Part shown: piece by piece, positions 13,672-39,823 of the stretch | How positions within the stretch are numbered: position 1 is the stretch's first letter | Layout: every line of letters begins with the position of its first letter | Assembly (NCBI RefSeq): GCF_002087085.1 | Contig: NZ_MWQY01000018.1 | Location: 1-64,000, forward strand | Length of the DNA: 64,000 nt | Direction of reading: 5' to 3' | Position numbers and translations under genes: made by a program | Notes under the pieces: generated by a model | The model's input: only the letters and a program-made list of their open reading frames with translations | Told to the model about the DNA's origin: nothing | The model's database searches: none

Positions 13672-13676
13672 ACGAT

Positions 13677-14136: not shown

Positions 14137-16530
14137 ATGGCAAAGGTAGATTTACACGTACATTCAAAGTATTCCGATCACCCGTCGGAATGGTTCCTTC
14201 AGCGTCTTGGTACCTCCGAGTCCTATACCGAACCGGAGTATATTTACACCACCGCAAAACAGCGGGGCATGAACCTGGTTACCATAAGCGATCATAACAG
14301 CATCCAGGGAGCATTGGAGCTGAAGAAGCAGCACCCGGAAGACTGTTTTGTCAGCGTGGAGTCCACGGCCTACTTTCCCGAGGACGGCTGCAAGATTCAC
14401 ATTCTGCTCTTCGACATAACCGAAGAGCAATTCGAACACATAGAAGCTCTCAGAAAGGATATTTACCTCCTCAGGGACTACATCAAAGAGGAAAATATCG
14501 CCTATTCGGTGGCTCATGCGACCTATTCTGTAAACGGTGCGGTTACGGCAGAGCATCTGGAAAAACTGATTCTCCTGTTTGACGTTTTCGAAACTATTAA
14601 CGGGGGCCGGAACGAACGCAACAACAATGAGTGGACCCGTTATCTCTCGTCCCTTACCCGGGAAGACATCGAAGGGCTGCAGCAGCGTCACCGGATCGAA
14701 CCCATGAGTGTTACCCCCTGGATCAAGGGCTTCACCGCAGGGTCGGACGACCACGCGGGAATCTTTATCGGGAAAACCTGGACCTCCAGCGAAGCTTCCA
14801 CGGTGGAGGAGTTTATCCACAGCATACGGACCAGGAAAACCGCTGCCCACGGGCGGCATCACAATTTCCACTCCATGACCTTCATGATCTACAAGATCGC
14901 TTTTGATTTTTTCCGCATCAGGCATAACGGCTCAGTCCCCGGACCGGTCTCTCTGGTTCTTGACGGTCTTTTCAACGAAAAAGAGCTGAACCTGAAACGC
15001 GCCTTCGCCCTGAAGCGGATACAAAAGAAAAAGAAGAAGAGTGCCAACCAGCGAATCCTGGTCGATCTCATCGAACAGGTTCGAAGCGTGAACTATCACG
15101 AAATCGATGCCCGTCTGGATATTGTCTATGAAAAGGCTTCGGAGCTTCTGGATGCAATTATCAAGGATTTTATCGATTCCTTCGGAAAGCACCTGCGTAA
15201 GGGCAACTTCGACAAGCTGATGCGGAACTTTTCCTCCCTGCTCCCGGCCCTGTTTCTTACGGTTCCCTTTATCAGTACCTTCACTCACATGTTCAACAAC
15301 CGCAAGCTGGTTAACGAAATGTTTCTGCGTCTTGGCAAGGAACCTCCCCGAAAGGAGAAAAAGATCCTCTGGTTTACCGATACCCTTACCGAGCTGAACG
15401 GGGTGGCCATAACGGTGCAGGAGATCGGATGGATCGCCCATACAATGAAAAAGGAGATCCGCATTGCAGCTGCAGTCGGGAGTGAGAACCTGGGGGAACT
15501 TCCTCCCAATTTAATGAACATTCCCATCGTCGGCAGCCTGCCCCTTCCCCATTACGAAAAGCTCAACTTGAAGGTCCCGAGTCTGCTGGCCACCTTAAAG
15601 CTGATAAACGACTACGATCCGGACGAGATCTACATATCCACCCCCATGACCATCGGGCTCACAGGACTTGCCGCCGCACGGCTTCTGAATATACCCGCCG
15701 TCGCGATTCACCATACCGACGGAACCATGCAGGTACGTAAAATTGTTGATGATATAACCATTACCAATTACGTTGAATCCTACATGAAGTGGTTTCACTC
15801 AGCCTGCGACAAGACCCTGGTCAATACCCGGGAATACGCGGAAATATTGAAGAAACGGGGCTACCGCATGCCAGAGGTGGGTCTCTTTCACCGGGGGGTG
15901 GATACAAATCTGTTCAAACCTCATGCCGGAGCCCGGAGGGTCCTGGGGGAGAAATACGGAATCAGAAAAGGAATCAATCTCCTCTATGCAGGACGTATAT
16001 CCCGGGACAAGAGTGTGGACATCGTTGTTGACTGCTTTCTTCATCTGAAAGAGGAGTTTCCGGAACTGAACCTGATTATCGCCGGGGAAGGCCCGTATAC
16101 CGATGAGATGCTGCGCCGGGTACAGAGGGAGGAGCGGGTCCATTTTCTCGGCAGGGTCGACCACGACCTGATGCCCATCGTCTACGCCGCCTCGGACCTG
16201 TTCCTCTTTCCCAGCGTAACCGACACCTTCGGCAGGGTTGTAGCCGAAGCCCAGTCCTGCGGGGTACCGACCATCGTAAGCAACGCAGGGGGCCCCCAGG
16301 AGATAATCGCGGACGAACGAACCGGCTGGATTGTCCGCACCCAGTCCGGAGAGGACTGGATCACAGCGACCAGGAAACTTCTTCAGAACCTGAAGGAAAA
16401 CCCGGAAGAGTATAACCGCATGGGACTGGAGGCCCGCTCCCATATCATTGAAGAGTACAGCATGCAGCATTTTATTACCGGATTGTTTAGAAAACACCCC
16501 CGGGAATCCAAACTCGCTGAATCAGCATGA
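14137..16530 (+). CDS. PHP phosphoesterase domain fused to a GT4 glycosyltransferase
   Basis: N-terminal DLHVHS, ISDHN, AH, GSDDH; C-terminal FTDT..NGVA, YAGRISRDK, FPSVTDTFGRVVAEAQSCG. Confidence 0.88.
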   Translation: MAKVDLHVHSKYSDHPSEWFLQRLGTSESYTEPEYIYTTAKQRGMNLVTISDHNSIQGALELKKQHPEDCFVSVESTAYFPEDGCKIHILLFDITEEQFEHIEALRKDIYLLRDYIKEENIAYSVAHATYSVNGAVTAEHLEKLILLFDVFETINGGRNERNNNEWTRYLSSLTREDIEGLQQRHRIEPMSVTPWIKGFTAGSDDHAGIFIGKTWTSSEASTVEEFIHSIRTRKTAAHGRHHNFHSMTFMIYKIAFDFFRIRHNGSVPGPVSLVLDGLFNEKELNLKRAFALKRIQKKKKKSANQRILVDLIEQVRSVNYHEIDARLDIVYEKASELLDAIIKDFIDSFGKHLRKGNFDKLMRNFSSLLPALFLTVPFISTFTHMFNNRKLVNEMFLRLGKEPPRKEKKILWFTDTLTELNGVAITVQEIGWIAHTMKKEIRIAAAVGSENLGELPPNLMNIPIVGSLPLPHYEKLNLKVPSLLATLKLINDYDPDEIYISTPMTIGLTGLAAARLLNIPAVAIHHTDGTMQVRKIVDDITITNYVESYMKWFHSACDKTLVNTREYAEILKKRGYRMPEVGLFHRGVDTNLFKPHAGARRVLGEKYGIRKGINLLYAGRISRDKSVDIVVDCFLHLKEEFPELNLIIAGEGPYTDEMLRRVQREERVHFLGRVDHDLMPIVYAASDLFLFPSVTDTFGRVVAEAQSCGVPTIVSNAGGPQEIIADERTGWIVRTQSGEDWITATRKLLQNLKENPEEYNRMGLEARSHIIEEYSMQHFITGLFRKHPRESKLAESA

Positions 16531-21493: not shown

Positions 21494-21978
21494 ACCACGA
21501 ATTATCCCTCAGGGTAATCGAGTATTTTGGAACCGACTCCAGAAGAATTCACCACGCCATGCAGGTCTACGGTTTTGCCGAGACAATTCTTCTTGCAGAA
21601 GGGATTGTCGGCAAGGAAAGGCAGGTCATTGAAACAGCAGCCCTTATCCATGACATCGGGATTCCTGAGGCGGAACGAAAACACGGCTCTTCCGCCGGCA
21701 ATTACCAGGAGCTCGAAGGACCTCCCCTGGCCCGGACAATCCTTGAAGGACTCTCATACCCGGAGGAGGTAATCAATCGCGTCTGCTTCATAATAGCCAA
21801 CCACCACAGCTACACTAAAATTGACGGCATCGACTTCCGCATACTCGTGGAAGCCGATCTTATCGTCAATATCTACGGCAACACCATGTCCCGGCAAGCC
21901 GCAGACACCCTGATCAGCAAACACTTTGTCACTGCCGCCGGGAGGCGAATCGCCGAAGGGATGTATCAGGGGTATTGA
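21490..21978 (+). CDS. HD-domain phosphohydrolase
   Basis: RIHH, AALIHDIG, NHH, EAD. Confidence 0.88.
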   Translation: MNHELSLRVIEYFGTDSRRIHHAMQVYGFAETILLAEGIVGKERQVIETAALIHDIGIPEAERKHGSSAGNYQELEGPPLARTILEGLSYPEEVINRVCFIIANHHSYTKIDGIDFRILVEADLIVNIYGNTMSRQAADTLISKHFVTAAGRRIAEGMYQGY

Positions 21979-22883
21979 GCTCCCGCGACACCAACATATA
22001 CCGAGTACACAGCATGGGTTCCCATGATGAACAGCTGATTTCGTTTCTTTCCGCCAAAGGTGAGGTTGGCAACGACATCAGGGACCAGGATCTTACCGAG
22101 AAGCTCTCCCCCGGGAGAATAACAGTGAACACCGTCAGCTGCACTGCTCCAGACATTTCCGTCGATATCAACCCTGAATCCGTCGGAAATCCCCGGATTC
22201 ACTTCGACAAAGACCGTGTTCCCGCTTAACTCATTTCCATCTTTCACTTGGAAACGACGAATATGGTGGGCTCCATTCTTGTCGTGGGTAGCTCCCGTAT
22301 CCGAAATATAGAGGTATTTTTCATCGGGAGAAAAGGCCAGACCGTTGGGCATCTGGAAATCATCGGCCACGACCGTCAGCTTCTCTTCCTTCGGGTCATA
22401 CCGAAATACATAGTTCTTTCCTGTTTCGCTGGGGCTGCGCTTTCCCTCGTAATCAGACATGATGCCGTAGGGAGGATCGGTGAACCAGATTGTACCATCC
22501 GATTTAACAACGACATCATTCGGAGAATTAAGACGTTTCCCTTCATAATTATCAACCAGCACGGTTATCGATCCGTCTATTTCCGTGCGGGTAACCCTCC
22601 GGGAAAGATGCTCGCAGCTTATAAGGCGTCCCTGTCTGTCCCGGGTATTGCCATTGGAATTATTCGATGGCGACCTGAATACGCTCACCCCCAGACCATC
22701 AACCCAGCGCATCATGCGGTTATTGGGAATATCACTCCAGACAAAATAGTCCCCATCGGAAAAATAGACCGGACCTTCGCACCACTTCATTCCGTCATGA
22801 ACCAGTTCCAGGTCACAGTTTCCCAGCAGATAATACCGGAACCGTTCATCAAAAATTTCATAATCCCGAATACGTTCTCCCAT
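21966..22883 (-). CDS. SMP-30/gluconolactonase family protein
   Basis: WCEGP, SNG, LNSPND, FTDPPYG, PNGLAFSPD, DGFRVD. Confidence 0.92.
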   Translation of the reverse strand: MGERIRDYEIFDERFRYYLLGNCDLELVHDGMKWCEGPVYFSDGDYFVWSDIPNNRMMRWVDGLGVSVFRSPSNNSNGNTRDRQGRLISCEHLSRRVTRTEIDGSITVLVDNYEGKRLNSPNDVVVKSDGTIWFTDPPYGIMSDYEGKRSPSETGKNYVFRYDPKEEKLTVVADDFQMPNGLAFSPDEKYLYISDTGATHDKNGAHHIRRFQVKDGNELSGNTVFVEVNPGISDGFRVDIDGNVWSSAADGVHCYSPGGELLGKILVPDVVANLTFGGKKRNQLFIMGTHAVYSVYVGVAGAQYP

Positions 22884-22899: not shown

Positions 22900-23898
22900 T
22901 TACGTACTCTTCAGCTGCCGAATAATACTGTCCAGCAATACAGAAAAGATGATGACCACACCGACGGCGGCTCCCTGCCAGAAGGGTGATACCCCGAGAA
23001 GATTTAATCCATTGTTAAGAACCGTAATAATGGCTATACCTATAAGCGTTCCCAGGAGCCCCCCCTTGCCGCCGGCAAGACTTGTTCCTCCGATGACGAC
23101 TGCAGCAATGGCATTCAATTCAATATTTATGCCCGTATCAGGATCGACTGCTCCCAGGCGGGATGTAAGAATCAATCCGGAAACAGCGCAAAGAAAACCG
23201 GTAATTGCATAGGTCAGCGCCGTATAAAAACGGACGCGTACGCCCGAAAGATGAGCGGCCTCTTCGTTGCTTCCGATGGCATAAATATATAAACCGACCT
23301 TCGTCTGTTTCAGCATGAAATAGGCCATTCCAAACAACACAATGAACACAATAAGGTACAAGGGAACGCTTCCGATCTCTGCATTTCCGAAAAAGCGATA
23401 CGCCTCAGGAAGTCCCACCAGCGAACGGCCATCCGTCAGCAGATATGTGGCCGATCGCCCTATGGATAAAAAGCCCAGGGTGACTATAAACGCCGCCAAC
23501 CGCGCATATGCCACAAGAAAACCCTTAATGACACCGACAAGGGTTCCCAAAAGCAGCATGGCAACAACGCCCGGAATTACACCGAACTGCTGCATTACGA
23601 TTCCACCGAACATTGCTGCCACCGCGGCGTTACTGCCTACGGACAGATCTATACCCCCCGTCAGGATTACAAGGGTTTGACCTATGGCAATAATCCCCAG
23701 AAATGTTGCCTGCCAGAACAGGTTTCGAAAGTTGCGAATGGTAAGGAACCTCGGGGTCAGTATCGTCAGTACCAGACAGAGAAGGATGAATGCAATTGTC
23801 ATGACAATCTCAACCTGGGATGTGTAGGACAGCAGCTTATTCCCTTTCTCTTTCCATTTCTGAATTAAATTTGGCGACCCGTACATAGTCTCTTTCAT
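22900..23898 (-). CDS. Monosaccharide ABC transporter permease (RbsC family)
   Basis: GGIDLSVG, FIVTLG, IGSNEEAA, IAAVVIGGTSL. Confidence 0.93.
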   Translation of the reverse strand: MKETMYGSPNLIQKWKEKGNKLLSYTSQVEIVMTIAFILLCLVLTILTPRFLTIRNFRNLFWQATFLGIIAIGQTLVILTGGIDLSVGSNAAVAAMFGGIVMQQFGVIPGVVAMLLLGTLVGVIKGFLVAYARLAAFIVTLGFLSIGRSATYLLTDGRSLVGLPEAYRFFGNAEIGSVPLYLIVFIVLFGMAYFMLKQTKVGLYIYAIGSNEEAAHLSGVRVRFYTALTYAITGFLCAVSGLILTSRLGAVDPDTGINIELNAIAAVVIGGTSLAGGKGGLLGTLIGIAIITVLNNGLNLLGVSPFWQGAAVGVVIIFSVLLDSIIRQLKST

Positions 23899-25451
23899 GA
23901 ATTTTCTACCTCGTTTGTTGATGCACTGGACGCATAGCGTATTATTTTCTCCTCATCTGCCTCTGACCAGTCCAGTTCTTTTACAATTGTGCCGGAATTC
24001 ATAACCAGTATTCGATCGCTTAAGGCCAGGATTTCCGGTAATTCCGAGGATATCAGAATGATTCCCTTGCCTTCCTGCACAAGCTGATCGATCAATGTAT
24101 AGATTTCGTATTTCGCACCAATATCTATTCCCCTGGTCGGTTCATCGAGGATAAGGATATCAGGATCCAGGGTCAGCCATTTTGCGAAGACGACCTTCTG
24201 CTGATTCCCCCCGGAAAGAGAATCCACGGGGTCCGAGACTTCACCAATACGAATTCGCAGATCATCCACCCGTTTTCTGACAATCCGATCCCCCTCCCGT
24301 TTAGCAAGAATCATCCCTGAACCAAGGGCATAATGGGCAAGCAGCAGGTTATCCTGGATGCTCATGTTGACAATCAAACCGTGACTCTTTCTGTTTTCCG
24401 GAAGCATGCCGATACCCTGCTGAATCGCTTTTCTCGGGGATCGGAAGATCTGGGACCGACTGCCTGTTGATACAGCACCTTCCTTCAGTTTATCTGCACC
24501 AAAAATCGCCCGGGCAAATTCGGTTCGGCCGGCGCCGACCAATCCTGAAAGTCCGACAATCTCGCCCCGACGCACGGTAATGTCACAGCCGCGGCAACGG
24601 GGTCCATTGTTTACATTCTGCGCCTGCAACAGGATTTCTCCAGGTTCACGTCTTTTCCGAATGGAAAAAAGGTCCCCGATCTCCCTTCCAACCATCGAGG
24701 CAATCAGTTCATCAGGAGTTGTTTCTGCTGTTACAAAATCGTTAGTTTTTTCTCCGTCCCGTAAAACGACGATACGATTGGAAAGTTCAAATATCTCTTC
24801 TATTTTATGGGTAACAAAAACAACCGTTGTACCATGATTTTTTTGCAGGCGTCGAACTAATTGAAACAGCTTATCTACTTCCCTGGGACTCAGGGCGGCG
24901 GTAGGCTCATCCAGAATCAAAAGCCGGGCTTCGTATGCGATACCTTTCAGAATTTCCAGAATCTGCTGTTCCGCGACAGACAGATTGGAAACGAGAATAT
25001 CGGGATCGACCGGAAGATCCCAGCCAATCTGACTGTAGAGCTCAAGGGCTCTTTTACGCATATCCTTTCGGTTCAAGAGGGTTTTTGTCGTCCCCCTGGC
25101 GCAGTCGGAAAGATACAGGTTTTCCGCAATTGAAAGGTCCGGCACAAGGTTGAATTCCTGAAGAACAATCCCTATACCTGAATCAATTGCCTCGTTTGTA
25201 TCCCGAAACGATACACGCCTGCCTTCAAGCAGAAGCTCTCCACTGTCATACCCCTGAACCCCGGCGATTATTTTTGCCAGTGTTGATTTTCCAGCACCAT
25301 TTTCACCTACAAGTGCCAGGGTATCACCTTTTTCGATGGTCATGCTGACATTATTCAGGGCCTGGATTCCACCAAAGCGTTTGCTTATCTCTTTTACTTC
25401 AATTAACGGATACACATCATCCCCTATGCTATGCAGAAGCACTGCGGACAC
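23895..25451 (-). CDS. Monosaccharide ABC transporter ATP-binding protein (RbsA/MglA family)
   Basis: GENGAGKS, DEPTAAL, GLVGAGRT, LSGGNQQK, DEPTRGID; start approximate. Confidence 0.94.
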   Translation of the reverse strand: MSAVLLHSIGDDVYPLIEVKEISKRFGGIQALNNVSMTIEKGDTLALVGENGAGKSTLAKIIAGVQGYDSGELLLEGRRVSFRDTNEAIDSGIGIVLQEFNLVPDLSIAENLYLSDCARGTTKTLLNRKDMRKRALELYSQIGWDLPVDPDILVSNLSVAEQQILEILKGIAYEARLLILDEPTAALSPREVDKLFQLVRRLQKNHGTTVVFVTHKIEEIFELSNRIVVLRDGEKTNDFVTAETTPDELIASMVGREIGDLFSIRKRREPGEILLQAQNVNNGPRCRGCDITVRRGEIVGLSGLVGAGRTEFARAIFGADKLKEGAVSTGSRSQIFRSPRKAIQQGIGMLPENRKSHGLIVNMSIQDNLLLAHYALGSGMILAKREGDRIVRKRVDDLRIRIGEVSDPVDSLSGGNQQKVVFAKWLTLDPDILILDEPTRGIDIGAKYEIYTLIDQLVQEGKGIILISSELPEILALSDRILVMNSGTIVKELDWSEADEEKIIRYASSASTNEVENS

Positions 25452-25460
25452 AATAACTGA

Positions 25461-25494
25461 TCCTGTTGCCCGGCTTTACGGCCGGGTAACAGGA
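25461..25494 (-). terminator. Intercistronic stem-loop after the sugar-binding protein gene
   Basis: TCCTGTTGCCCGGC...GCCGGGTAACAGGA inverted repeat. Confidence 0.6.
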
Positions 25495-25525
25495 ATGTAT
25501 ATATGTCCTGCCGAGACACCCTCGT

Positions 25526-26527
25526 TTATTTCTGAGCTTCCAATTCCGCAGGAAAGACATTATCTGCCAGCTGGTCTTCCACATCGAGCACGTTTTCGCG
25601 GGTGACCAGAATGGTCGGAACGAGAACTCTCTCCTCCGGAGTCTCACCATTCAGGTATTTCCACATTGCCTTGAAGGACTCCCGGCCCATAAGCACAGGC
25701 TGCTGCATGGAAGCCGCGGCAATCCTGTCACCTGATTTTATTGCTTCAACCGTTTCAGGGCTGCCGTCGAATCCGACGTGGGCTATGTTCTTGTAGTCTC
25801 CGGTATTTTCAAGAGCAGACAGGGCGCCAAGGTTTGCTTCATCGTGCTGGGTAAACAGGCCGTGAAGGTTCTCATGCGCAGCCATCAGATCCTGAGTAAA
25901 GTTGAATGATTCTCCCCGGGTATACTGATTGCACTGCAGCAGATTAACGACGTTGATTCCGGCTTCGGTCATGGCTTTTTCGAATCCTGCGGTGCGGTCA
26001 CGTCCATTCTGCCGGGCCTGGGAGATAGCAATCTGAGCGACGTCTCCGTTCTCCCATCCTTTTTTCTTCATGATCCGGGCCAGATACTCGCCTGCCTGAT
26101 AGGCACCTTCAAAGTTGTCGGAAATGATAAAGGATACGTATTCACCGGAGTCGGTTCCAATGTCACTGATAACTACGGGGATACCGTCGGCCTTTGCCAG
26201 TTCAAGAACCGGAGGACAGGAGGCACTGTCGGTGGGTGAAATGATAATTCCATCCACTCCTCGCTGAATCAGATCCTGCACGTTCTGCAGCTGAGTTGCA
26301 GCATTCAATTCGGAATCCGAATCAATTATGGTTACCTTCTGACCGAGCTTTTCCGCTTCCTGCTTTATTCCATCGGACACATTTTTCCAGAACGGAACAT
26401 GAAGCGCGGGGGTTACATAAGCAATGGTTATTCCTTCGGAATCACCAGTCGCCTCCTGTTCACCGGCAGAAAAGACAGCTCCCACCAGAAAACAGCTTAC
26501 AATAAGACACAACAATAGTTTCTTCAT
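25526..26527 (-). CDS. Monosaccharide ABC transporter periplasmic binding protein (RbsB family)
   Basis: Signal peptide, PFW..GI, GVDGIIISP, GFDG, QQPVLMG; SD AAGGAG before ATG 26527. Confidence 0.93.
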   Translation of the reverse strand: MKKLLLCLIVSCFLVGAVFSAGEQEATGDSEGITIAYVTPALHVPFWKNVSDGIKQEAEKLGQKVTIIDSDSELNAATQLQNVQDLIQRGVDGIIISPTDSASCPPVLELAKADGIPVVISDIGTDSGEYVSFIISDNFEGAYQAGEYLARIMKKKGWENGDVAQIAISQARQNGRDRTAGFEKAMTEAGINVVNLLQCNQYTRGESFNFTQDLMAAHENLHGLFTQHDEANLGALSALENTGDYKNIAHVGFDGSPETVEAIKSGDRIAAASMQQPVLMGRESFKAMWKYLNGETPEERVLVPTILVTRENVLDVEDQLADNVFPAELEAQK

Positions 26528-26552
26528 ACTATTTCTCCTTTCAGTTTTTATG

Positions 26553-26568
26553 AGCAATATTTATGCCA
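26553..26568 (-). promoter_or_regulatory. Sigma54 promoter of the sugar ABC-lactonase operon
   Basis: TGGCATAAATATTGCT, near-consensus GG-N10-GC; divergent sigma54 activator adjacent. Confidence 0.85.
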
Positions 26569-26640
26569 CATACAGCATATCTTTGAGATACTATCAATAA
26601 TCTTTTTCCCAGCAAGGATTTATCAATAATACACTTTATG

Positions 26641-26670
26641 TTGACAGAAATATTCCGGCCGCCGTATAGT
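26641..26670 (+). promoter_or_regulatory. Sigma70 promoter of the regulator-kinase pair
   Basis: TTGACA-N18-TATAGT. Confidence 0.6.
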
Positions 26671-26676
26671 CAAAGG

Positions 26677-26726
26677 TGTGCATTTTGAAAACAATGAAAC
26701 TACACAGTGTGTGAAATTATGATACA
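26677..26726. promoter_or_regulatory. Tandem candidate upstream activator sequences (TGT-N11-ACA, two copies)
   Basis: TGTGCATTTTGAAAACA (26677-26693) and TGTGAAATTATGATACA (26710-26726), 33 bp apart. Confidence 0.5.
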
Positions 26727-28071
26727 ACAATTGGAAAAGAAATGCTCTGTCCTTGTTGTGGATGACAGGGAAAAGGTCTGCCAGACACTTGTCAAGAATT
26801 TTGTAAAACTGGGTTACGAGGCAGACTTCGTTACTTCCGGATCTGAAGTTCTTCGCACAATACGCAAAAACCGGCCGGATACCGTCCTTCTGGACATTAT
26901 GCTCGGAAGCGACGATGGTATCGAAATCCTGAAAATGGTAAAGCATGAAAACCCTGATCTTCCGGTCATAATGATAACCGGATACGCATCCATTGATTCT
27001 GCTGTACAGTCTCTCAGATGCGGCGCCTATGATTATGTTCAGAAACCCCTCGAATTTGAGGAACTGAGAGAGATTGTCGACCGTGCAGTCAGGGAAAATT
27101 CATCCGGGATGTCACAGCCCGGTCAGGAAACTTCATTTCCAAAGATTGTTACCCAGAGTAAAGAAATGCTCTCCATAATCAAGCAGATTGACAAGCTGGC
27201 ACCCAGCGATCTTCCCATCCTGATTCTCGGAGAAAACGGGACAGGGAAGGAACTGATTGCTGATCGAATTCATCGAAAGTCAAAGCGAAGCTGCCGGCAG
27301 ATGCTGAAAATAAACTGCGCGGCTCTGCCCGAATCGCTTCTTGATAACGAGCTTTTCGGACATGAGAAAGGGGCCTACACAGGAGCAGAGTCGACCTTTC
27401 AGGGTGTCTTTGAGAAGGCCGACGGAAGCAGCCTGATGCTGGATGAAATCGGAGACATGTCGCTGTCCATACAGGCCAAGATTCTCAGGACTCTGCAGCA
27501 TAACGAAATCAGGCGTATCGGAGGAACAGAAACCATATCCATAAATGTCCGATTCATTGCGGCTACCAACAAGGATATCGAAAGTCTCATAAAAAAAGGA
27601 GACTTCCGGGCGGACCTCTTCTATCGACTCAATACCGCTATTATTCGAGTCCCCCCCCTGAGAAACAGACGGGCCGATATCCTTCCCCTGGCACAAACGT
27701 TTCTGGAACAATACTCTCTGAAAAAGGGGATACCCGCAAAGTCACTGACGGACAAAGCTGCCGATATTCTGATGGAGTATCACTGGCCGGGCAATATACG
27801 GGAACTGAAGAATATTGTCGAGTACAGCGCAGCTATTACCGAGTTCTCCGACACCATCACCGACCGCGATCTTCCTCCGCAAATTATGGGAAAAGAAGAT
27901 CTGTTCTCTTCAGATGACGATCCACTCAATATACGTGAAACCATGGAAAGAGAACTTATACAGAAAACCCTGCACAATACCCTGTTCAATAAAAGCGAAA
28001 CTGCACGAATCCTTAAAATGAGCCGTCGAACCTTATACAATAAAATCCAACGCTACAATATTGATATATAA
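26719..28071 (+). CDS. NtrC-family sigma54-dependent response regulator
   Basis: Receiver VVDD/LLD/ITG/QKP; AAA+ GENGTGKE, GAYTGA, LDEI, FRADLFYRLN, WPGNIREL; Fis-type HTH. Confidence 0.95.
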   Translation: MIQQLEKKCSVLVVDDREKVCQTLVKNFVKLGYEADFVTSGSEVLRTIRKNRPDTVLLDIMLGSDDGIEILKMVKHENPDLPVIMITGYASIDSAVQSLRCGAYDYVQKPLEFEELREIVDRAVRENSSGMSQPGQETSFPKIVTQSKEMLSIIKQIDKLAPSDLPILILGENGTGKELIADRIHRKSKRSCRQMLKINCAALPESLLDNELFGHEKGAYTGAESTFQGVFEKADGSSLMLDEIGDMSLSIQAKILRTLQHNEIRRIGGTETISINVRFIAATNKDIESLIKKGDFRADLFYRLNTAIIRVPPLRNRRADILPLAQTFLEQYSLKKGIPAKSLTDKAADILMEYHWPGNIRELKNIVEYSAAITEFSDTITDRDLPPQIMGKEDLFSSDDDPLNIRETMERELIQKTLHNTLFNKSETARILKMSRRTLYNKIQRYNIDI

Positions 28072-28076
28072 AGACC

Positions 28077-29918
28077 ATGCCGGAAGTACCATTAATTGAG
28101 CTTAAAAATATCAATCTTGACTACGGAGACATTCCCGCCCTCCGTGACATTAACCTGTCCCTGCTGCCCGGAGAAGTGCACGGAATCGTGGGAGAACACG
28201 GTGCAGGCAAATCATCCCTGGGAAAAGTAATCAGTGGAGTAATCCGCCCTCAATCCGGTACTCTCTTATATAAAGGAAAACACTACGGAAACACATCTTT
28301 AAAAGAGGTAATGAAGCTCGGCATTCAGATGGTGTATCAGCATACACCGCTCATAGAAGATTTTACGGTGATAAAAAACCTGTATTTTGCTCATCAGCCT
28401 TCCGCTTTTTTTCGACGCCGCCAGCTGAATACCATCGCCGAAGAAGTGGATACCATAAAGAAAAAATATGGAATATCGATCGATACCAGTGCCCGGGTCC
28501 AGGACTTGAACCTGTCGGATAAAGCCGTGGTTGATATCATCAAACACGTCATATCCAGGCCCAGCCTGCTGATCCTTGACGAAGCGCTGGAAAAAATCGA
28601 AACAAAAAACCTGGGGCCGGTTATTGAACTCCTTCATGCCTTGAAAGACAATGGAATGTCGATTTTATTTATTACCCATCGAATCGATGATCTTTTTGAG
28701 TTTGCCGACCGGGTCAGCATTATACGAAACGGAACCGTTCTTCTAAGTGAGTATGTATACAATATAGATAAAATAAACCTCATCCGTATGACATATACGC
28801 AGATCAATAAAAAGAAATACCCGGGGGTATACAGCCAGGAATTCTATCGTCTGTTAAAGTATAATGAAGCCATTTTACGCAAATTGCCCATTAACCTTAT
28901 AGTGATCGATACGAAGGAACATGTCCGCCTCGTAAACGAGTACTGTAAGGAGTATTTCGGCATTGACGACAATGCAAATATCGAATTGACCCTCGATCAG
29001 ATCATCGACCGGGGATCAGAATCTTTTCGCTCATCCATGCAAAGCGCACTCAAAAAGCGAAAAGAGGAAGTCTTCTATCATCTTCCTCTTAGAATAGGAA
29101 ATCGCGAAATCGTAACAAACCTGCGTGTTCTTCCCATCTTTGATAAAACCTCATTTATCGGTTCCATTATAATAATTGAAGATATAACTGAATACGATAA
29201 GCTGCAGAAGCAATATGTCTTATCGGAAAAACTGGCCTCCGTCGGACTGCTGTCTGCCGGAGTTGCTCACGAAATCAACAATCCCCTTGAAATAATGCTC
29301 AATCAACTCAACTATATCAAGCTTTCTTTCCAGAACCAGGAACTCATCAGTCTGATTGATGATGTTAAAGAGGAAGTTACATTCATCGCAAAGATCGTAC
29401 GAAATCTGCTCTCCTTTACTGATAACCGAAAAGTTGAGGAAGACAACATAGAAATAAATCATCTTATAAACGAGGTGATACGTTTTGTACGATTTTCCGC
29501 CAAAAAGCGCTCTGTTCAGATAAGTGTGCATAATGCCCGGGATCCTCTTTATATCAAAGCGAATGCTGATGAGATACGACAGGTCTTTCTCAACCTCCTG
29601 AAAAACAGCTTCGAGGCAATGCCCGGAGGCGGAAAAATCAATATCAAGATCCAGTTTACAGAAATTAACGATAAGCACTATATTGAGGTGCGCCATTGTG
29701 ATACCGGCCATGGGATTCAGACAGAAAACCCGGATGATATTTTTCTTCCCTTCTTTTCCACAAAAGAGAGTAATGGATTAAATAACGGCCTGGGGCTTTC
29801 CGTCAGCTATGGAATCGTAAGCAAATATAATGGAATAATACAGGCGGAAAATGATCCCAATGGAGGTTGCATCTTTGTCATAAGATTACCGCTCCAACAA
29901 CCCGATGCAAAGGAGTAA
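28077..29918 (+). CDS. Soluble sensor kinase: sugar-ABC ATPase domain, PAS, HisKA, HATPase
   Basis: Walker A GEHGAGKS, Q-loop MVYQ, Walker B LLILDE, H-loop FITH; PAS-like LIVID..VN; H-box AHEINNPL, N-box NLLKNS, DTGHGI, PFFSTK, GLGL; no TM segment. Confidence 0.9.
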   Translation: MPEVPLIELKNINLDYGDIPALRDINLSLLPGEVHGIVGEHGAGKSSLGKVISGVIRPQSGTLLYKGKHYGNTSLKEVMKLGIQMVYQHTPLIEDFTVIKNLYFAHQPSAFFRRRQLNTIAEEVDTIKKKYGISIDTSARVQDLNLSDKAVVDIIKHVISRPSLLILDEALEKIETKNLGPVIELLHALKDNGMSILFITHRIDDLFEFADRVSIIRNGTVLLSEYVYNIDKINLIRMTYTQINKKKYPGVYSQEFYRLLKYNEAILRKLPINLIVIDTKEHVRLVNEYCKEYFGIDDNANIELTLDQIIDRGSESFRSSMQSALKKRKEEVFYHLPLRIGNREIVTNLRVLPIFDKTSFIGSIIIIEDITEYDKLQKQYVLSEKLASVGLLSAGVAHEINNPLEIMLNQLNYIKLSFQNQELISLIDDVKEEVTFIAKIVRNLLSFTDNRKVEEDNIEINHLINEVIRFVRFSAKKRSVQISVHNARDPLYIKANADEIRQVFLNLLKNSFEAMPGGGKINIKIQFTEINDKHYIEVRHCDTGHGIQTENPDDIFLPFFSTKESNGLNNGLGLSVSYGIVSKYNGIIQAENDPNGGCIFVIRLPLQQPDAKE

Positions 29919-29921
29919 AGG

Positions 29922-31073
29922 ATGCAGCACTCCGAACTCTCAGCCGAAACCCTCAGCTTCATGAAGAACCTCGGATTCCCCAGGCTCAAGGTACATCACT
30001 CCTATAACCACTTCGATTTTACCGAAGGGGCACGCAGGATTCTTGTAATCGGACCCATGGGTTCGGGAAAAACGGAATTCTCCGCCCGGGTATGGCGGGA
30101 CGCCCGTATAGCCAGGCAGAAATCCGGCGCCGTGGCGGAGCAGACAACCAGCGGAAGGGCGGACCGTCGTATCGTCTATTTTGTCCGTTCCGTAATGGAC
30201 AAACTGCGCTTCCCAGACTATCCCGCCGACGCCCTGGCCTATCGCGGCGGCTACGAACGCTGCGGCGAGAATATCTGCTATATATCCAACTCCTTCGAAC
30301 TGGAACAGGCCATTCACGACCACCCGGACGCGGGAACCTGGATTGTCGATGAAGCGAGTTTCTACGATGAGCGGACCGCCTACGTCGTCAAGGAGGCCTC
30401 GCTGCGGAACGATCTCGTCTTTATATTCCCCACCCTGGTGCTGAATTTCCGGCGGGACATATTCAACCGGACGACCCAGTTCCTGCTGGAAAACTGCACG
30501 GATATCTTTCCCCTGACAGCCTACTGTGAACACCCGGACTGTATCGAAGACTCCTTTTACACCTACCGCTATTACCGGATCGACGGAGAGGAGTGCCCCG
30601 CCCTCTACTTTGATCCCCTGATCGTCATCGGCGGGGATACAACGAAGGACGATCCCCGCCAGCCCAACTACTGCACCCGTTGCGACCGGCACCACTACCT
30701 GCCGGGGAAGGAGTACACCTATCTGGTGCTGAAACCCCTGGGAGAGAGTGCTTCCCGGGGTGATCTTGCACCCCTCCGCCGGGAACTTGAACTGATCAAA
30801 TCGGATATTACCCGATCCCGGCTGCACAGCCACCTGGAGAACCGTTTTCTTCAGGGAGAATCCCCGGAACCGGTTAATCTGAATGCCCTGAAGGTCCCCT
30901 GTATCGCCGAAAAGGCGCTGATCTTCCTCTTTGCCGAACAGAACCTGATCTCAGAAGACCAGATGCGCCTCCTGGTCGGGGAACTGGATCTCGACCGGGA
31001 ATACATGCAGCAGACCCTCCGGGACAACGGCCGTCCCCTGGACCTGGATCAGTTTACCCTCTCCTTCAAGTGA
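29922..31073 (+). CDS. tdk: Thymidine kinase (long form with C-terminal extension)
   Basis: GPMGSGKT, VDEASF, zinc-type motifs YCEHPDC and CTRCDRHH. Confidence 0.85.
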   Translation: MQHSELSAETLSFMKNLGFPRLKVHHSYNHFDFTEGARRILVIGPMGSGKTEFSARVWRDARIARQKSGAVAEQTTSGRADRRIVYFVRSVMDKLRFPDYPADALAYRGGYERCGENICYISNSFELEQAIHDHPDAGTWIVDEASFYDERTAYVVKEASLRNDLVFIFPTLVLNFRRDIFNRTTQFLLENCTDIFPLTAYCEHPDCIEDSFYTYRYYRIDGEECPALYFDPLIVIGGDTTKDDPRQPNYCTRCDRHHYLPGKEYTYLVLKPLGESASRGDLAPLRRELELIKSDITRSRLHSHLENRFLQGESPEPVNLNALKVPCIAEKALIFLFAEQNLISEDQMRLLVGELDLDREYMQQTLRDNGRPLDLDQFTLSFK

Positions 31074-31082: not shown

Positions 31083-31673
31083 ATGATAATCAACAGCGCC
31101 CTGTTTTTGACAGCCCTGATCAACCCCATCAGCAAGATAGCTGTAATTTCCATGCTGCCGGAATCGGCCAGCATGAAAGACGTGGAAAAGATTGCCCTGA
31201 GATCCAGCCTGGTGGCCTTCGCGATGCTGATCGTCTTTGCCCTGGGGGGAAACCTGCTTTTTAAATCGGTATTCCATATCGAGCTCTATTCCTTCCAGAG
31301 CGTCGGGGGATTCGTCGTTTTCTTTTACGGTTTCATGGCCCTCAGGCAGGGGGTTTTCTTTGAGGTCTCCTCACAGCAGAAGCTTCTTGACCTCTCCATC
31401 GTCCCCATTGCGAGTCCCCTGATTGCAGGACCCGCGACAATAACCGCAGTGATTACACTCTCCGCCGAGCATCATATCAGTACGGTTATCATCGCCCTTG
31501 CACTGGCCCTGGGCCTGAATCTGGCGGCAATGCTGCTTTCGCGGGTCATAGCAAAGCCGCTTATCAAGTTCAATGTGATGGGCGCCCTGATCCGGATCAC
31601 CGGTCTTTTTGTCGCCTCCATCGGAGTCGACATGATGTTCACGGGAATCCGCTCATTCGTTCAAACGCTGTAG
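31083..31673 (+). CDS. MarC family membrane protein
   Basis: INP, VPIASPLIAGPATI, RITGLFV. Confidence 0.9.
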   Translation: MIINSALFLTALINPISKIAVISMLPESASMKDVEKIALRSSLVAFAMLIVFALGGNLLFKSVFHIELYSFQSVGGFVVFFYGFMALRQGVFFEVSSQQKLLDLSIVPIASPLIAGPATITAVITLSAEHHISTVIIALALALGLNLAAMLLSRVIAKPLIKFNVMGALIRITGLFVASIGVDMMFTGIRSFVQTL

Positions 31674-31674
31674 A

Positions 31675-33870
31675 TCAGTCCAGGCGGGCGAGTTTCTTCA
31701 ATACCCCCCGCAGGGATCTCCATCCTTTTACATGATACTTCGCCTTCGACAGGGTCATTCCAACCTTTATTGAATATGCCGTATCGGGCACAACATCGAA
31801 GAGGTCCTCATCCGTGTAGTCGTCTCCCACGGCGAAGATAAAATCAAACTCCTCTCCCCGGAGCCACTCGGAAGCTGCTATACCCTTGTTTACGAAGGAA
31901 TCCTTTACCTCAAGGACCTTGTTGCCGTCCAGCAGCCCGATATTCATGTTCTCGATAACCGAATAGAGGGAATCCTTCAGTTCCCCGACCCTCAAGGCCG
32001 CCAGATCCGGTTCGCAGCGGCGGTAATGCCAGGCCAGGGAGAACTCCTTCTCCTCGATAAAGGAACCGGGAGTACGGTCGGTATAGCTTTCCAGAATGGG
32101 ACGGATGCCTTCCTTCCATTCGGTGGAGAAAAGCTCCGCTTTTTCCCACTCCCTGCCCTTCATCTTGACCCAGCTTCCGTGACCTGCAGCCATTTCTATG
32201 GGAACTCCGCTGAAGAAGCTTTCCAGGTCCTTCGGTTCCCGACCGCTTATAACAACGACCCTGTTTCCCCTGGACTTGCAGAGGGCCGAGACAATATCAA
32301 GAAGTTCCGCGTCGGGGCGGGCCTTTTCCGGCTTGTCCCGGAAACCCACCAGGGTACCGTCGTAATCGAGAAAAAATATGGCTTTCCTGGACTTTTCATA
32401 GTCCGCCAGCATTTTCGATTCCACGGAATCGATCATGTTCCTCGCCGATTGGGAACGCTGGTATTCATGGACCTCTTCCAGTTTCCTGACGAAGTCCCTG
32501 GCCCAGAAACGGACGTTATAGCGGGAAATCCTTCGCTTCATGATGGAATTCTGCCGTTTCTGATCCTCCACGTCCATCTTCAGTCCGGTATCGATGGCAT
32601 CGGCGATACCCTGCAGGTCGTTCGGATTGATCATCAGCGACTCACCCAACTCGTGGACGGCACCGGCGGTTTCGCTGAGAATCAGGACACCCGTATCGTC
32701 CCTGCGGGCCGCCAGGTACTCCTTGGCAATCAGGTTCATCCCGTCCCGCAGGGCTGTAACCAGAAGCAGGTCAGCCTCCATGTATAGGGCGGTCAGGTCT
32801 TCAAAGGAGAAGGAGCGGTAAAAGAAATGAATCGGCGTCCAGCCCAGGCTGCCGTGCCGTCCATTGGTTGCGCTTACCAGTTCCCGGATCTCCTTCAGGA
32901 GGTCCTGATACTCCTCAACTTCGGTACGGGAGGGAGCGACTATCAGGAAAAGTTCCACCTTTTCATGATATTCCGGGTGCTGGTCCAGAAAAAGGGCGAA
33001 GCTTTTTATGCGCTCCGGGATTCCCTTGGTGTAGTCCAGCCGGTCCACCGAAAGGATTGTCCTCTTTCCCGACAGTTCCCGCTTTACCTCGGCATGAGCG
33101 GAGATAACCTCCGGTGTATTGTCCGCCTGATTGTACTTTTCGTAATCGATCCCCATGGGAAAGACATCCGCCCGCACAAGCCGCTGCCCCGCGGTCAGAT
33201 ATCCAAGACTGAACTCGTAGCCCAGAAGCCTGCGGGCGCTGGAGATAAAGTGGCGCACGTAGTCATAGGTATGAAAACCCAGCAGGTCCGAACCCATCAG
33301 GCCCTCCATGATCTCCTCACGCCAGGGCATCAGACGCATGATTTCGTAGGAAGGAAAGGGAATATGCAGAAAAAAGCCCACAAGGGCTTCGGGAAACTCC
33401 TCGCGGATCATCTGTGGCAGCAGCATGAGCTGGTAATCATGGACCCAGATTGTATCTCCCGGTTCAATATATGGTTTGAGCTCTTCAAAAAAAAGCCGGT
33501 TCACCCGGAAATAGGCCTCCCACTGGTCGGTATGGTAGTGGGCCCGGTTGGGAAAGTAGTGGAACAGGGGCCAGATGGCCTCGTTGCAGAAGCCTAGGTA
33601 GAAATCTTCAAAGTCCTTCCTGGACAATTGAAAGGGTACGCAGCTCTCCTCCCGCATCAGGAGGCGCTTCAGCTCCTCCGCGTCGGAACCGGATACATCC
33701 TCCTCGTGGAGGCCGCTCCATCCCACCCAGAGGCTTCCGCCTTCGTTGTGAACGGAACTCAGTCCCGTTGCCAGCCCGCCGATACTGCGGGTAAAACTGT
33801 ACTCTCCGCTTTCGGGATTACGATTAATCGTTACCGGAAGCCGGTTTGATACATAGATAATTTTTGCCAT
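31675..33870 (-). CDS. otsAB: Bifunctional trehalose-6-phosphate synthase/phosphatase
   Basis: VSNRLP, WPLFHY, WVHDYQL, DRLDYTKG, RDGMNL; HAD DYDGTL and GDDYTDED; SD GAGGAG before ATG 33870. Confidence 0.93.
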   Translation of the reverse strand: MAKIIYVSNRLPVTINRNPESGEYSFTRSIGGLATGLSSVHNEGGSLWVGWSGLHEEDVSGSDAEELKRLLMREESCVPFQLSRKDFEDFYLGFCNEAIWPLFHYFPNRAHYHTDQWEAYFRVNRLFFEELKPYIEPGDTIWVHDYQLMLLPQMIREEFPEALVGFFLHIPFPSYEIMRLMPWREEIMEGLMGSDLLGFHTYDYVRHFISSARRLLGYEFSLGYLTAGQRLVRADVFPMGIDYEKYNQADNTPEVISAHAEVKRELSGKRTILSVDRLDYTKGIPERIKSFALFLDQHPEYHEKVELFLIVAPSRTEVEEYQDLLKEIRELVSATNGRHGSLGWTPIHFFYRSFSFEDLTALYMEADLLLVTALRDGMNLIAKEYLAARRDDTGVLILSETAGAVHELGESLMINPNDLQGIADAIDTGLKMDVEDQKRQNSIMKRRISRYNVRFWARDFVRKLEEVHEYQRSQSARNMIDSVESKMLADYEKSRKAIFFLDYDGTLVGFRDKPEKARPDAELLDIVSALCKSRGNRVVVISGREPKDLESFFSGVPIEMAAGHGSWVKMKGREWEKAELFSTEWKEGIRPILESYTDRTPGSFIEEKEFSLAWHYRRCEPDLAALRVGELKDSLYSVIENMNIGLLDGNKVLEVKDSFVNKGIAASEWLRGEEFDFIFAVGDDYTDEDLFDVVPDTAYSIKVGMTLSKAKYHVKGWRSLRGVLKKLARLD

Positions 33871-33880
33871 ATACTCCTCG

Positions 33881-34783
33881 TTATATCGTCGTAACCGGCT
33901 CCCGGGTAAGGATGTACTCACGCATCAGCTTCGCCGCCCCGGAAGGCAGGGAGGCGCCGAGGCTGACAATTCCGAGCTCCCTGTCGGGCAGGGCCGGTTC
34001 TGTATTAATAATAAACAGCTCCCCTGCGGAAACTGCCCGTTGAATACTCATCTCTTCCACGTGGGCAATGCCGAATCCTATCTTTGCAAACTCCTCCAGC
34101 AGATCCATGCTCTCGAGTTCTATGGCGGGAACGACCTTTATTCCCCGGGACTGAAGAAAGTGATCCAGCAGCTTGCGGGTGGTACTTTCACCGTTCAAAA
34201 GGAGCAGGGGATATTCCGCCAGGTTCTCGATTCTGCAGCGCCCGCCCCGCAGTTCTTCAAAACGCCGGGAGGCCACAAAGACATCCCTGACCCTTCGGAA
34301 GGGCTGTATCGTATACTGCCCCGATCCTGCAGGAAGGGAGACTATACCGAAATCGATGCTGCCGTTTTTCAGCAGAGAGAGGATTCCGGAGCTTGTCCGG
34401 TTCTTTACCTGGATCCTGATCCCCGGATACTCCTCGGCAAAGCTCTTGAAGATGGGGATCAGATGATAGCGGCAGATGGTATCCCCCACGCCGATTCTCA
34501 CCTCCCCGGAATCAAAGCCCGCCATCTCCTTGAGACTCCGCTCACCGGCGGAAAAATTGAGGATACCCTGGGAAATATGACGGAACAGGACCTCTCCCTC
34601 ATGACTGAGGCGTATGCGCCTTCCGTCCCGCAGGAACAGGGGAGTCCCGAGCCGGGATTCCAGGTTCTTGATCGCCTGGCTTACCGCCGACTGGGTAATG
34701 TGCAGTTCCTCCGCACCTTTGGTAAAACTGCCCGCACCGGCGACACGATGGAAGATTTTATATAGTTCGTAATCGATATCCAT
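33881..34783 (-). CDS. LysR family transcriptional regulator
   Basis: SFTKGAEELHITQSAVSQAIKNLE HTH plus a substrate-binding domain. Confidence 0.95.
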   Translation of the reverse strand: MDIDYELYKIFHRVAGAGSFTKGAEELHITQSAVSQAIKNLESRLGTPLFLRDGRRIRLSHEGEVLFRHISQGILNFSAGERSLKEMAGFDSGEVRIGVGDTICRYHLIPIFKSFAEEYPGIRIQVKNRTSSGILSLLKNGSIDFGIVSLPAGSGQYTIQPFRRVRDVFVASRRFEELRGGRCRIENLAEYPLLLLNGESTTRKLLDHFLQSRGIKVVPAIELESMDLLEEFAKIGFGIAHVEEMSIQRAVSAGELFIINTEPALPDRELGIVSLGASLPSGAAKLMREYILTREPVTTI

Positions 34784-38641: not shown

Positions 38642-39823
38642 CTATGAATTATATTCAGTGAATACTCTCTTTAATGAATCATAATCATCGAGAAATTTAT
38701 CAGCATATTCTTTTGCCCATTTCTGCCATTCAATTGAAGAAGCATACTCATTGTCTTTATTTTTCTTAAAATTGCCAATTCCACTACTATTCGTGGTTCG
38801 CCAAAGGTACCAATAGTCATTTGGGTTTAATTCATCACAAGGTATAGATTTCTTGTTCACGATATGCTCAATTCTATCCTTCACGTTCTGATCTGTGGTT
38901 CCAGGTGAGACAGGCTGTAATCCTGTCCCTAAGCGATAATTACCATTATTCCAGTTAAACTCAACCACCCAATTATACTGTTCGGACATTGTAACGCAGA
39001 ACCCATAATCATCACCTTCAATAGCACTTTGTTTGATTTCATTTACGTCTGTTTCGATTTTTAAGCCACGTTGTTGTAGCTCCTGCATCAGTTCTTGTAA
39101 AAACATTACATGACATCTCTTTTGTGATGCATTCAGTACATAGCGTGTCTGATTCGGTTCTATTGAACCCTCCTCGAAAACAGCACTTGCCGCTTCTCTT
39201 TCATTAAAGGAATCATTAACCATTTCTTCTATCATCTCCCTGTATAATCGTATATTGCAGCGGATATTGTCATTACCAAAAGCTTCAGGCGTATCATCAC
39301 AAGTCTGCAACCACTTAATAATATGCTCTTTATAAGAACATGGCGTTATCGGTCCCGTATAATCTCCGATGGAATCAACTGATGGATCCCAGCCTAATGG
39401 AGTAAGATAGACAACGTGTATCGATTCTTCTTTATAGTTGTATTTCTCCCCTTTTAAAGTTTTTACATAGTTACTAATTTGAGCAGGCTGATCGCGGGCA
39501 TCAACTTTGTTTTCGATTATTATTGCAGTCTTCTCATTCAATAATTCTATAAGAATATCTATATTATCTGTTTCTCTTGAAACTATGATCGATTTTGGAT
39601 CTTTTAGTGAATAATTGGGGAATTCTTTAATTTGAAGACACCTAAATAGAAGTCTGACTCGTTCCAGACTGCCATCATAATTCGTATCTATAAGCTTAGC
39701 TATAATGTCTGAATGAAGAAGTTCTCTCCGGAGTACATTACTGGAAAGAAGTAAATTGAGATTATCATTTTTTAAGGTATATAGTTTTCCTGAGATATCG
39801 ATTATTGTCTTCAATACAGACAT
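38642..39823 (-). CDS. PD-(D/E)XK nuclease family protein
   Basis: E..HS..IA, IDILI...IIIENK...DQPAQISNY, YLTP; AT-rich; SD GAGGA. Confidence 0.8.
   Translation of the reverse strand: MSVLKTIIDISGKLYTLKNDNLNLLLSSNVLRRELLHSDIIAKLIDTNYDGSLERVRLLFRCLQIKEFPNYSLKDPKSIIVSRETDNIDILIELLNEKTAIIIENKVDARDQPAQISNYVKTLKGEKYNYKEESIHVVYLTPLGWDPSVDSIGDYTGPITPCSYKEHIIKWLQTCDDTPEAFGNDNIRCNIRLYREMIEEMVNDSFNEREAASAVFEEGSIEPNQTRYVLNASQKRCHVMFLQELMQELQQRGLKIETDVNEIKQSAIEGDDYGFCVTMSEQYNWVVEFNWNNGNYRLGTGLQPVSPGTTDQNVKDRIEHIVNKKSIPCDELNPNDYWYLWRTTNSSGIGNFKKNKDNEYASSIEWQKWAKEYADKFLDDYDSLKRVFTEYNS

Follow-up and report, generated by a model that had tools for sequence, protein, structure and literature searches.

Introduction

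Sensing of the cargo of ATP-binding cassette (ABC) importers is known for a few cases only, all of which involve separate proteins (MalK–MalT, Pst–PhoU–PhoR, BceAB–BceS and the binding-protein-dependent membrane kinases). In MalK–MalT and PstB–PhoU–PhoR, the state of the importer's cytoplasmic nucleotide-binding domain (NBD) is relayed to a transcription system, and it is the transporter's working NBD that binds a separate regulator. Here, we describe a sensor histidine kinase of 613 amino acids in which, by contrast, a dedicated and degenerate NBD copy is built into the kinase. Its gene occupies positions 28077..29918 (+ strand) of a 64,000-nucleotide stretch of DNA (positions 1 to 64,000 of contig NZ_MWQY01000018.1, NCBI RefSeq assembly GCF_002087085.1), which is called the window throughout and to which all coordinates refer unless stated otherwise. 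The gene follows that of an NtrC-type response regulator, and both are divergent from the operon of a sugar importer of the CUT2 family. It is proposed, at roughly even odds (a probability of about 0.5), that the kinase is a transporter-coupled two-component switch that docks via its NBDs on the neighboring importer.

Among the described systems, the Bce-type modules follow a similar logic. BceAB is a transporter of the exporter type, and the Bce regulator is not a sigma-54 activator. The Bce kinase has no ligand-binding sensor of its own and is considered to read an ABC transporter whose operon the system controls, as is suggested here; BceS, however, is embedded in the membrane, where it contacts the transporter, whereas the window kinase is soluble and carries a covalently fused NBD. 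Next to the window kinase lie a CUT2 importer that depends on a binding protein and a regulator of the NtrC type, so that, with neither a transmembrane kinase nor a BceAB-type transporter, the locus falls outside the Bce group.

Each half of the kinase has its own close relatives. Residues 6-250 match the first NBD of the CUT2 (TC 3.A.1.2) ATPases and form a complete ABC NBD fold, but the kinase has one NBD and not two, lacks the signature and the D-loop of these ATPases, and is fused to a PAS domain and a kinase core. This PAS-HisKA-HATPase_c core (residues 256-610) resembles AtoS (NCBIfam, 223 bits) and the regulator resembles AtoC (423 bits), both scores being below the equivalog cut-offs, and the putative target promoter is of the –24/–12 type, as in the AtoS/AtoC and NtrB/NtrC systems; unlike in these, the N-terminal input is an ABC NBD and not a membrane or PAS sensor.

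In a review on the subject (PMC8050422), LuxQ–LuxP, TorS–TorT, LytS–XylFII, VirA–ChvE and HptS–HptA are given as sensor kinases that depend on a binding protein, with an RbsB-type protein (Peripla_BP_4 or Peripla_BP_1) as the primary receptor of the sugar or other ligand. LytS–XylFII comes near to the present locus in that it also induces a sugar ABC operon, but the kinases of this group are, in the same text, membrane proteins with an extracytoplasmic domain on which the binding protein docks, and the window kinase has neither; the word "ATPase" is absent from that review (PMC8050422). No published description of a histidine kinase fused to an ABC NBD was found in the literature searched, whose coverage stopped short of subscription journals.

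Results

Domain organization of the kinase

The reading frame of the kinase begins with ATG and runs over 613 codons in a single frame with no internal stop. Pfam recognizes ABC_tran at residues 22-171 (E 1.5e-20), PAS_4 at 268-372 (E 1.2e-06), HisKA at 391-449 (E 1.3e-04; 22.4 bits, which is below the cut-off of 26.9) and HATPase_c at 496-607 (E 6e-20). On this basis, and with the support of NCBIfam, Foldseek, the family alignment and an AlphaFold2 model, the protein can be divided into an NBD of the CUT2 first-NBD type (residues 1-245, 28077..28811), a PAS domain preceded by a helix at residues 251-268 (residues 268-372, 28878..29192), the HisKA or dimerization and histidine phosphotransfer (DHp) domain with H398 as phospho-acceptor (residues 391-449, 29247..29423), and the HATPase_c catalytic (CA) domain with its N, G1, F and G2 boxes (residues 496-607, 29562..29897), all on the + strand. 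H398 is present in all 124 family representatives of the alignment, and N506/N510, D542/G544/G546, F556/F559 and G571/G573 are invariant or at least 90% conserved among 123 family members.

The N-terminal part (residues 6-250) corresponds in NCBIfam to the first half of the CUT2 ATPase models YtfR, AlsA, AraG, XylG, RbsA and MglA (E 5e-45 to 6e-38), with scores far below the equivalog cut-offs, and it is closer to the first NBD of the neighboring ATPase (30% identity, E 4e-33) than to the second (22%). Walker A (GEHGAGKS, G39-S46), Walker B (LLILDE, L164-E169), the Q-loop Q88 and the H-loop H201 are present, as had been noticed in a first-pass annotation made from the letters of the window alone. 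The signature position (L144-K149) reads LNLSDK, which is degenerate and does not qualify as a signature, and the D-loop (A170-I174) reads ALEKI where the first NBD of the neighboring ATPase has PTAAL. The altered D-loop had likewise been pointed out, together with the absence of LSGGQ; the latter statement is right for the kinase, but it does not set the kinase apart from the neighbor's first NBD, which has no LSGGQ either (signature LSVAEQQ, Walker A GENGAGKS). Only the second NBD of that ATPase has a motif of this kind (LSGGNQQK), together with a Walker A GAGRT and no H-loop histidine.

No membrane segment is expected in the kinase, because the highest mean hydropathy over 19 residues on the Kyte–Doolittle scale is only 1.48, and neither a signal peptide nor a periplasmic or extracytoplasmic ligand-binding domain was found by Pfam, by hydropathy or in the AlphaFold2 model, in agreement with the initial reading of the gene. 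The model is an all-soluble fold with a mean predicted local distance difference test (pLDDT) score of 90.0 and a predicted template modeling (pTM) score of 0.69, in which a complete NBD (residues 1-244, pLDDT about 95) is followed by a low-confidence linker (about 245-250), the N-terminal PAS helix, the PAS domain, a long DHp helix and the CA domain. By Foldseek, the kinase half resembles LOV/PAS kinases (4gcz, E 4e-24) and the NBD half resembles LptB (TMt 0.87) and MalK (3puv, rmsd 2.4 over 223 columns).

Contigs of two other public assemblies cover the gene without insertions or deletions, one of 99,289 nt (run X4) over positions 25400-30000, where it differs by 36 substitutions, the other of 10,417 nt (run X2) over 25749-30000, where it differs by 24; neither alignment has a gap. 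An assembly artefact can therefore be dismissed as the source of the fusion, and the uninterrupted joining of the NBD to a PAS-HisKA-HATPase unit with all kinase boxes, already read from the frame itself, is borne out. As regards RNA-library contigs, X17 and X18 overlap parts of the binding-protein gene and X18 overlaps the final 250 nt of the kinase gene (depth 2.1); the rest of the locus is without cover, short matches of about 33 nt corresponding to conserved motifs of other organisms.

The kinase family and its conserved gene neighborhood

The fusion is not confined to this assembly, as the first-pass annotation had allowed that it might be. In a protein collection clustered at 90% identity there are at least 120 near-full-length homologues (586-642 amino acids, 44-100% identity, query coverage of at least 94%), and all 120 of those listed contain both PF00005 and PF02518. 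They come from Spirochaetota, KSB3 and Desulfobacterota, the named sources including Marispirochaeta sp. (87% identity), Spirochaetia, candidate division KSB3 (Vecturithrix, Moduliflexus) and Desulfomarina. An exhaustive HMMER search against representatives at 50% identity gave, among the best 150 matches, full-length proteins, mostly of about 600 amino acids, down to 26% identity, and a PAS domain is found in all aligned family members. Full-length matches occur in 13 of 41 genomes of the same class (this one included), one genome having three, and matches at E <= 1e-55 occur in 14 of 401 genomes sampled evenly over the phylum; the distribution is patchy, but the family is old. Not counted were five matches that are partial or contain a stop (G316 C3 and C14, G178 C44, G151 C49 and C136). 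A single in-frame stop (TGA, TAG or TAA) is reported inside the matched stretch in G036 C2, G086 C4, G316 C2 and C3, and G178 C44, and one relative of 851 amino acids (P0212) has two HisKA stretches. Another architecture in which an NBD is joined to a kinase, ABC_tran + GAF_2 + HisKA, appears in two Atlas clusters (166 and 64 members, mostly Actinomycetota), a lead only, with scores of 0.83-0.84.

The gene neighborhood was compared by tblastn and Pfam over 31 related loci on 27 genomes or contigs of Spirochaetota. A scan of genome contigs returned 13 loci, of which 2 were full-length, and a metagenome scan with a generic H-box pattern returned 79 loci, among which only L040 and L041 belong to the family; the remaining 77 are other kinases and were left out. 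An NtrC-type regulator stands directly upstream of the kinase on the same strand in all 31 loci, and a CUT2 permease and/or ATPase adjoins in 28 (26 divergent from the regulator and 2 downstream and co-directional). Two of the three exceptions stop at a contig edge, which gives 28 CUT2-adjacent loci out of 29 assessable ones, so that the kinases are linked to sugar transporters beyond this genome, a point on which the docking proposal had been made to depend. The adjoining ATPase has two NBDs in 25 of the 28 loci and one NBD in 2 (L032 and L147), and is cut off in the remaining one. The idea of sensor-only operons devoid of an ATPase (L031, L002) was rejected, as tblastn finds an ATPase in both.

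Of 32 upstream regions, 27 carry a –24/–12 motif, with at most 2 mismatches, on the strand of the transporter and 0 carry one on that of the regulator, against a locus-wide background of 0.045 per region; a targeted look revealed the motif at 2 further loci, either just beyond the stretch scanned or ahead of the co-directional operon.

One locus differs in its surroundings. At L145 (contig C31 of genome G180; 7664-16132 in the coordinates of that locus), the downstream region contains a LacI-type gene, a gene for an FGGY kinase/ribulokinase, one for a class II aldolase/araD and one for an L-arabinose isomerase/araA, and its –24/–12 motif points away from the regulator.

Origin and decay of the nucleotide-binding domain

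All 31 kinase NBDs fall into a single clade (SH-aLRT 99) of a tree built from 89 NBDs. The clade groups with the first NBDs of the transporters (95), and the second NBDs lie outside this group (99). This topology speaks for a single ancient capture of a CUT2 first NBD rather than for repeated local duplication.

After this putative capture, the two faces of the ATP site seem to have fared differently. Among the 124 representatives, the Walker A lysine is kept in 120 (G44 and K45), the Walker B aspartate in 120, the catalytic glutamate in 110, the Q-loop glutamine in 94 and the H-loop histidine in 85, and Walker A occurs together with the Walker B D-E pair in 106; a signature-like motif survives in 1. 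Relative to 26 cognate first NBDs, the kinase NBDs have lost conservation most in the helical subdomain, around the signature and around the D-loop; the D-loop region, where the cognate domains have the consensus PTsaL, shows the largest relative loss of all. The C-terminal strands of the NBD and the helix leading into the linker are, on the contrary, more conserved than in the cognate first NBDs. The second NBDs of the 26 cognate ATPases have a canonical signature, a Walker A arginine and no H-loop histidine. From the motifs kept and lost it follows that the kinase NBD retains the first NBD's share of the consensus ATP site and has lost the share that a first NBD contributes to the site of its partner.

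Co-divergence of the kinase and the transporter

Pairwise distance matrices were compared over the 24 loci with all parts present, by means of partial correlations with 1000 permutations. The distances fall into two modules, one made of the kinase NBD, the kinase core and the regulator (r 0.83-0.88), the other of the permease and the first and second NBDs of the ATPase (r 0.74). When the regulator, the kinase core and the PAS domain are controlled for, the kinase NBD remains correlated with the permease (partial r 0.36), a value reached by 1 of 1000 permutations. The correlation is 0.38 without 5 near-duplicates, ranges from 0.29 to 0.37 across four distance measures and from 0.29 to 0.40 in the jackknife, whereas the same partial test against the permease gives –0.10 for the PAS domain and –0.09 for the kinase core. 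In further comparisons, the PAS domain reached 0.01-0.07 with the binding protein and 0.12 with the permease (92/1000), and the NBD reached –0.01 to –0.21 with the binding protein after control for the permease. Only the kinase NBD, then, co-diverges with the neighboring permease and ATPase, and the PAS domain, the kinase core and the regulator do not; this observation is new here. The regulator gene has no such signal even though its place is between the transporter and the NBD, which argues against plain linkage.

With Kimura distances, the residual of the NBD was 0.18 with the permease (17/1000) and –0.00 and 0.07 with the first and second NBD of the ATPase, respectively. With uncorrected or BLOSUM distances and the permease controlled for, the residuals were 0.07-0.20 with the first NBD and 0.17-0.21 with the second. 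The preference for the permease over the ATPase as the closer partner, suggested by the Kimura distances, was dropped, as p-distance, BLOSUM and rank measures did not bear it out.

Regulator, promoters and transporter operon

The regulator gene (26707..28071, + strand, with a true start likely at the ATG at 26719) ends 5 nt before the kinase start. Its product is of the NtrC/AtoC type, with Response_reg (REC), Sigma54_activat (E 2.5e-65) and HTH_8 domains, a GAYTGA loop and the motif GENGTGKE. A sigma-70-like promoter for the regulator–kinase operon (TTGACA-18-TATAGT, 11 of 12 consensus positions) is predicted at 26641..26670 (+), both hexamers being kept in the relative with 87% identity.

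On the other side, a sigma-54-type –24/–12 promoter (TGGCAT-N5-TTGCT, 26553..26568, – strand) lies 25 nt 5' of the ATG of the binding-protein gene, and rpoN is present in the same genome (contig C65). The operon on the – strand comprises genes for an RbsB-like periplasmic sugar-binding protein (Peripla_BP_4) with a lipoprotein-like signal (25526..26527, start corrected to the ATG at 26527), a CUT2 ABC ATPase with two NBDs (23895..25451), an RbsC-like CUT2 permease of the BPD_transp_2 family (22900..23898) and, as the final gene, a protein of the SMP-30/gluconolactonase family (21966..22883). The NCBIfam scores of these transporter proteins are all below the equivalog cut-offs, and no solved structure related in sequence to the permease was found. 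The arrangement first read from the window, with the kinase after an NtrC-type regulator and both divergent from a sigma-54-type sugar ABC and lactonase operon, thus holds, and Pfam and NCBIfam agree that the transporter has its own complete two-NBD ATPase.

Two sequences in the intergenic region were considered as activator sites. The direct repeat TATCAATAAT (26592-26601 and 26621-26630) was rejected, as it is not conserved in the 87% relative; the palindrome ACACAnTGTGT (26702-26712), just 5' of the regulator ATG and about 140 nt upstream of the –24 element, is kept in the close relative and is a candidate activator binding site.

Downstream of the kinase, a gene for a 383-amino-acid protein (29922-31073, +) starts 4 nt past the kinase stop and is followed by a gene for a MarC-family membrane protein (31083-31673, +), with no terminator-like site between the kinase and these genes. 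In the 383-amino-acid protein, nothing but a weak thymidine-kinase-like stretch is recognized (Pfam TK, E 1.2e-06; PDB 1xx6, E 0.004). Both genes are retained in the 87% relative and not in the other related loci.

Other features of the window

A second ABC importer, of the Bmp/PnrA type, is encoded at 8975-13671 (+) by genes for a binding protein, a tandem-NBD ATPase and two BPD_transp_2 permeases, with no kinase or regulator alongside. A fused trehalose-6-phosphate synthase/phosphatase of 748 amino acids (Glyco_transf_20 + Trehalose_PPase) is encoded at 31675-33921 (–). Two genes are related to defense, one for a type IV methyl-directed restriction enzyme with PLD nuclease, ResIII helicase and DUF3427 domains (56990-59884, +; PADLOC mREase_IV, 725 bits), the other for a PD-(D/E)XK protein (38642-39823, –) that matches the candidate defense family PDC-S26 (137 bits).

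Discussion

The proposed switch would work as follows. The regulator–kinase pair would be transcribed from its own sigma-70-type promoter, and the kinase would be a soluble dimer, each subunit of which carries a captured, ATP-binding and probably non-cycling copy of a CUT2 first NBD. This NBD would attach to the cytoplasmic face of the neighboring transporter and, in the simplest model, occupy the coupling sites of the permease in the manner of an ordinary ABC NBD. Engagement of the permease by the sugar-loaded binding protein would change how the two NBDs are positioned or spaced. The PAS–DHp core would receive this change through helix 232-244, the linker and helix 251-268, and the autophosphorylation of H398 would be altered as a result. 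The NtrC-type regulator, once phosphorylated, would activate the sigma-54 promoter of the operon for the binding protein, ATPase, permease and lactonase. The physical contact, its site, the direction of the signal and the action of the regulator on the divergent promoter are all steps that we infer.

A soluble kinase cannot meet a periplasmic binding protein directly and, as it has no membrane or periplasmic part, a signal from the binding protein would have to pass through the permease. Docking on the permease gains indirect support from the single origin of the NBD, from the retention of the cis ATP site along with the loss of the interface motifs, and from the co-divergence that is specific to the NBD. 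The term "flux sensor", by which the first-pass annotation described the kinase, exceeds this evidence.

Several points weigh against the docking of the kinase on the permease. A complete two-NBD ATPase already belongs to the transporter in 25 of 28 loci, which leaves no obvious vacancy; the conserved neighborhood alone would also be expected if the transporter operon were merely a regulatory target; and L145 has no ABC gene within 9 kb. ABC NBDs meet permeases at the Q-loop and the helical subdomain, and in the kinase the conservation of these parts is relatively lower than that of their counterparts in the cognate first NBDs (z difference –0.23); they are also where the co-divergence is weakest (0.15, 37/1000), the signal sitting in the RecA-like core. 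This regional weakness is not decisive, because a genuine first NBD ranks the regions in the same way. The permutation tests of the Mantel type that underlie the partial correlation of 0.36 are liberal when the sequences compared are related, and the effects are of modest size. Lastly, the window transporter is 53-60% identical to that of L033/L034, with the kinases in the two deepest subclades, and the window NBD has no special likeness to the NBDs of L033/L034 (30-31% identity).

A further possibility is that the permease dimer is shared by motor and sensor, the kinase dimer supplying both NBDs in a signaling-only complex, a bacterial ABC "transceptor"; this is a tentative idea, which we regard as doubtful. 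The signaling-only complex would be assembled beside the transporting one, made of binding protein, permease dimer and tandem ATPase, and the docking of the sugar-loaded binding protein would lead to histidine phosphorylation without any transport, as the kinase NBDs, when bound to ATP, would be unable to close because the signature motif and the D-loop are missing. NBD–kinase fusions with other middle domains, such as the ABC_tran + GAF_2 + HisKA lead mentioned above, would in that case suggest a general principle.

Other explanations do without docking on the transporter. If the kinase were a cytoplasmic nucleotide or energy sensor, its NBD would bind ATP or ADP and gate the kinase without ever touching the transporter, whose operon would simply be the regulon. 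The strong conservation of the cis ATP-site residues (Walker A and Walker B D-E in 106 of 124), the full ATPase that the transporter already has, the absence of an adjoining transporter at L145 and the common placement of target operons next to their two-component systems all fit such a sensor, but it leaves unexplained the specific descent of the input domain from a CUT2 first NBD, the near-exclusive vicinity of CUT2 genes (28 of 29 assessable loci) and the co-divergence of the NBD only, since a generic ATP sensor need not track one transporter; on balance, we consider it unlikely. Lower still in probability, and the least likely of the explanations considered, is that the NBD is a relic or scaffold of an old fusion with a structural or dimerization role, and that the PAS domain reads the sugar or a metabolite after uptake. 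PAS domains commonly bind small ligands, one is present in all aligned members, and induction by an imported substrate is common logic; the nucleotide-site residues are nevertheless under strong constraint, no part of the input half is better conserved than the NBD, which has a pLDDT of about 95, and the PAS domain tracks neither the binding protein (0.01-0.07) nor the permease (0.12, 92/1000) in its divergence, although the substrate class should vary among the loci.

The transporter could also be contacted elsewhere than at the permease. The kinase NBD keeps the consensus-site residues of a first NBD (Walker A, Walker B, Glu, Q and H), and for this reason it could form a head-to-tail pair with an NBD that does bear a signature, either the second one of the tandem ATPase (LSGGNQQK) or that of a single-NBD ATPase, and sense the nucleotide cycle. 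That the catalytic glutamate (110 of 124) and the H-loop histidine (85 of 124) are kept in a domain without a signature of its own would then make sense, as would the canonical signature, Walker A arginine and missing H-loop histidine of the second NBDs of the 26 cognate ATPases, the residual correlations with the first (0.07-0.20) and second NBD (0.17-0.21) under uncorrected or BLOSUM distances, and the single-NBD ATPases of L032 and L147. The second NBD of a tandem ATPase is, however, tethered to its own first NBD, so that access to it is hard to picture; the D-loop, which is part of the NBD:NBD interface, is lost; and under Kimura distances the residuals with the ATPase vanish (–0.00 and 0.07) while that with the permease stays (0.18, 17/1000). 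This pairing appears improbable, more so than a nucleotide sensor and slightly less so than a scaffold.

What distinguishes the window kinase from the cases of cargo sensing known so far is that the coupling element lies within the kinase itself, a degenerate copy of the transporter's motor domain serving as the input. If the kinase indeed docks on its transporter, the family would represent a genetically simple and widespread system for the cytoplasmic readout of a conformational change in an ABC importer, and it would explain how a soluble kinase can sense an extracellular sugar. The NBD, together with the cognate permease and binding protein, would then be a modular part for sugar-responsive circuits, and the ABC NBD would join the list of two-component input domains.

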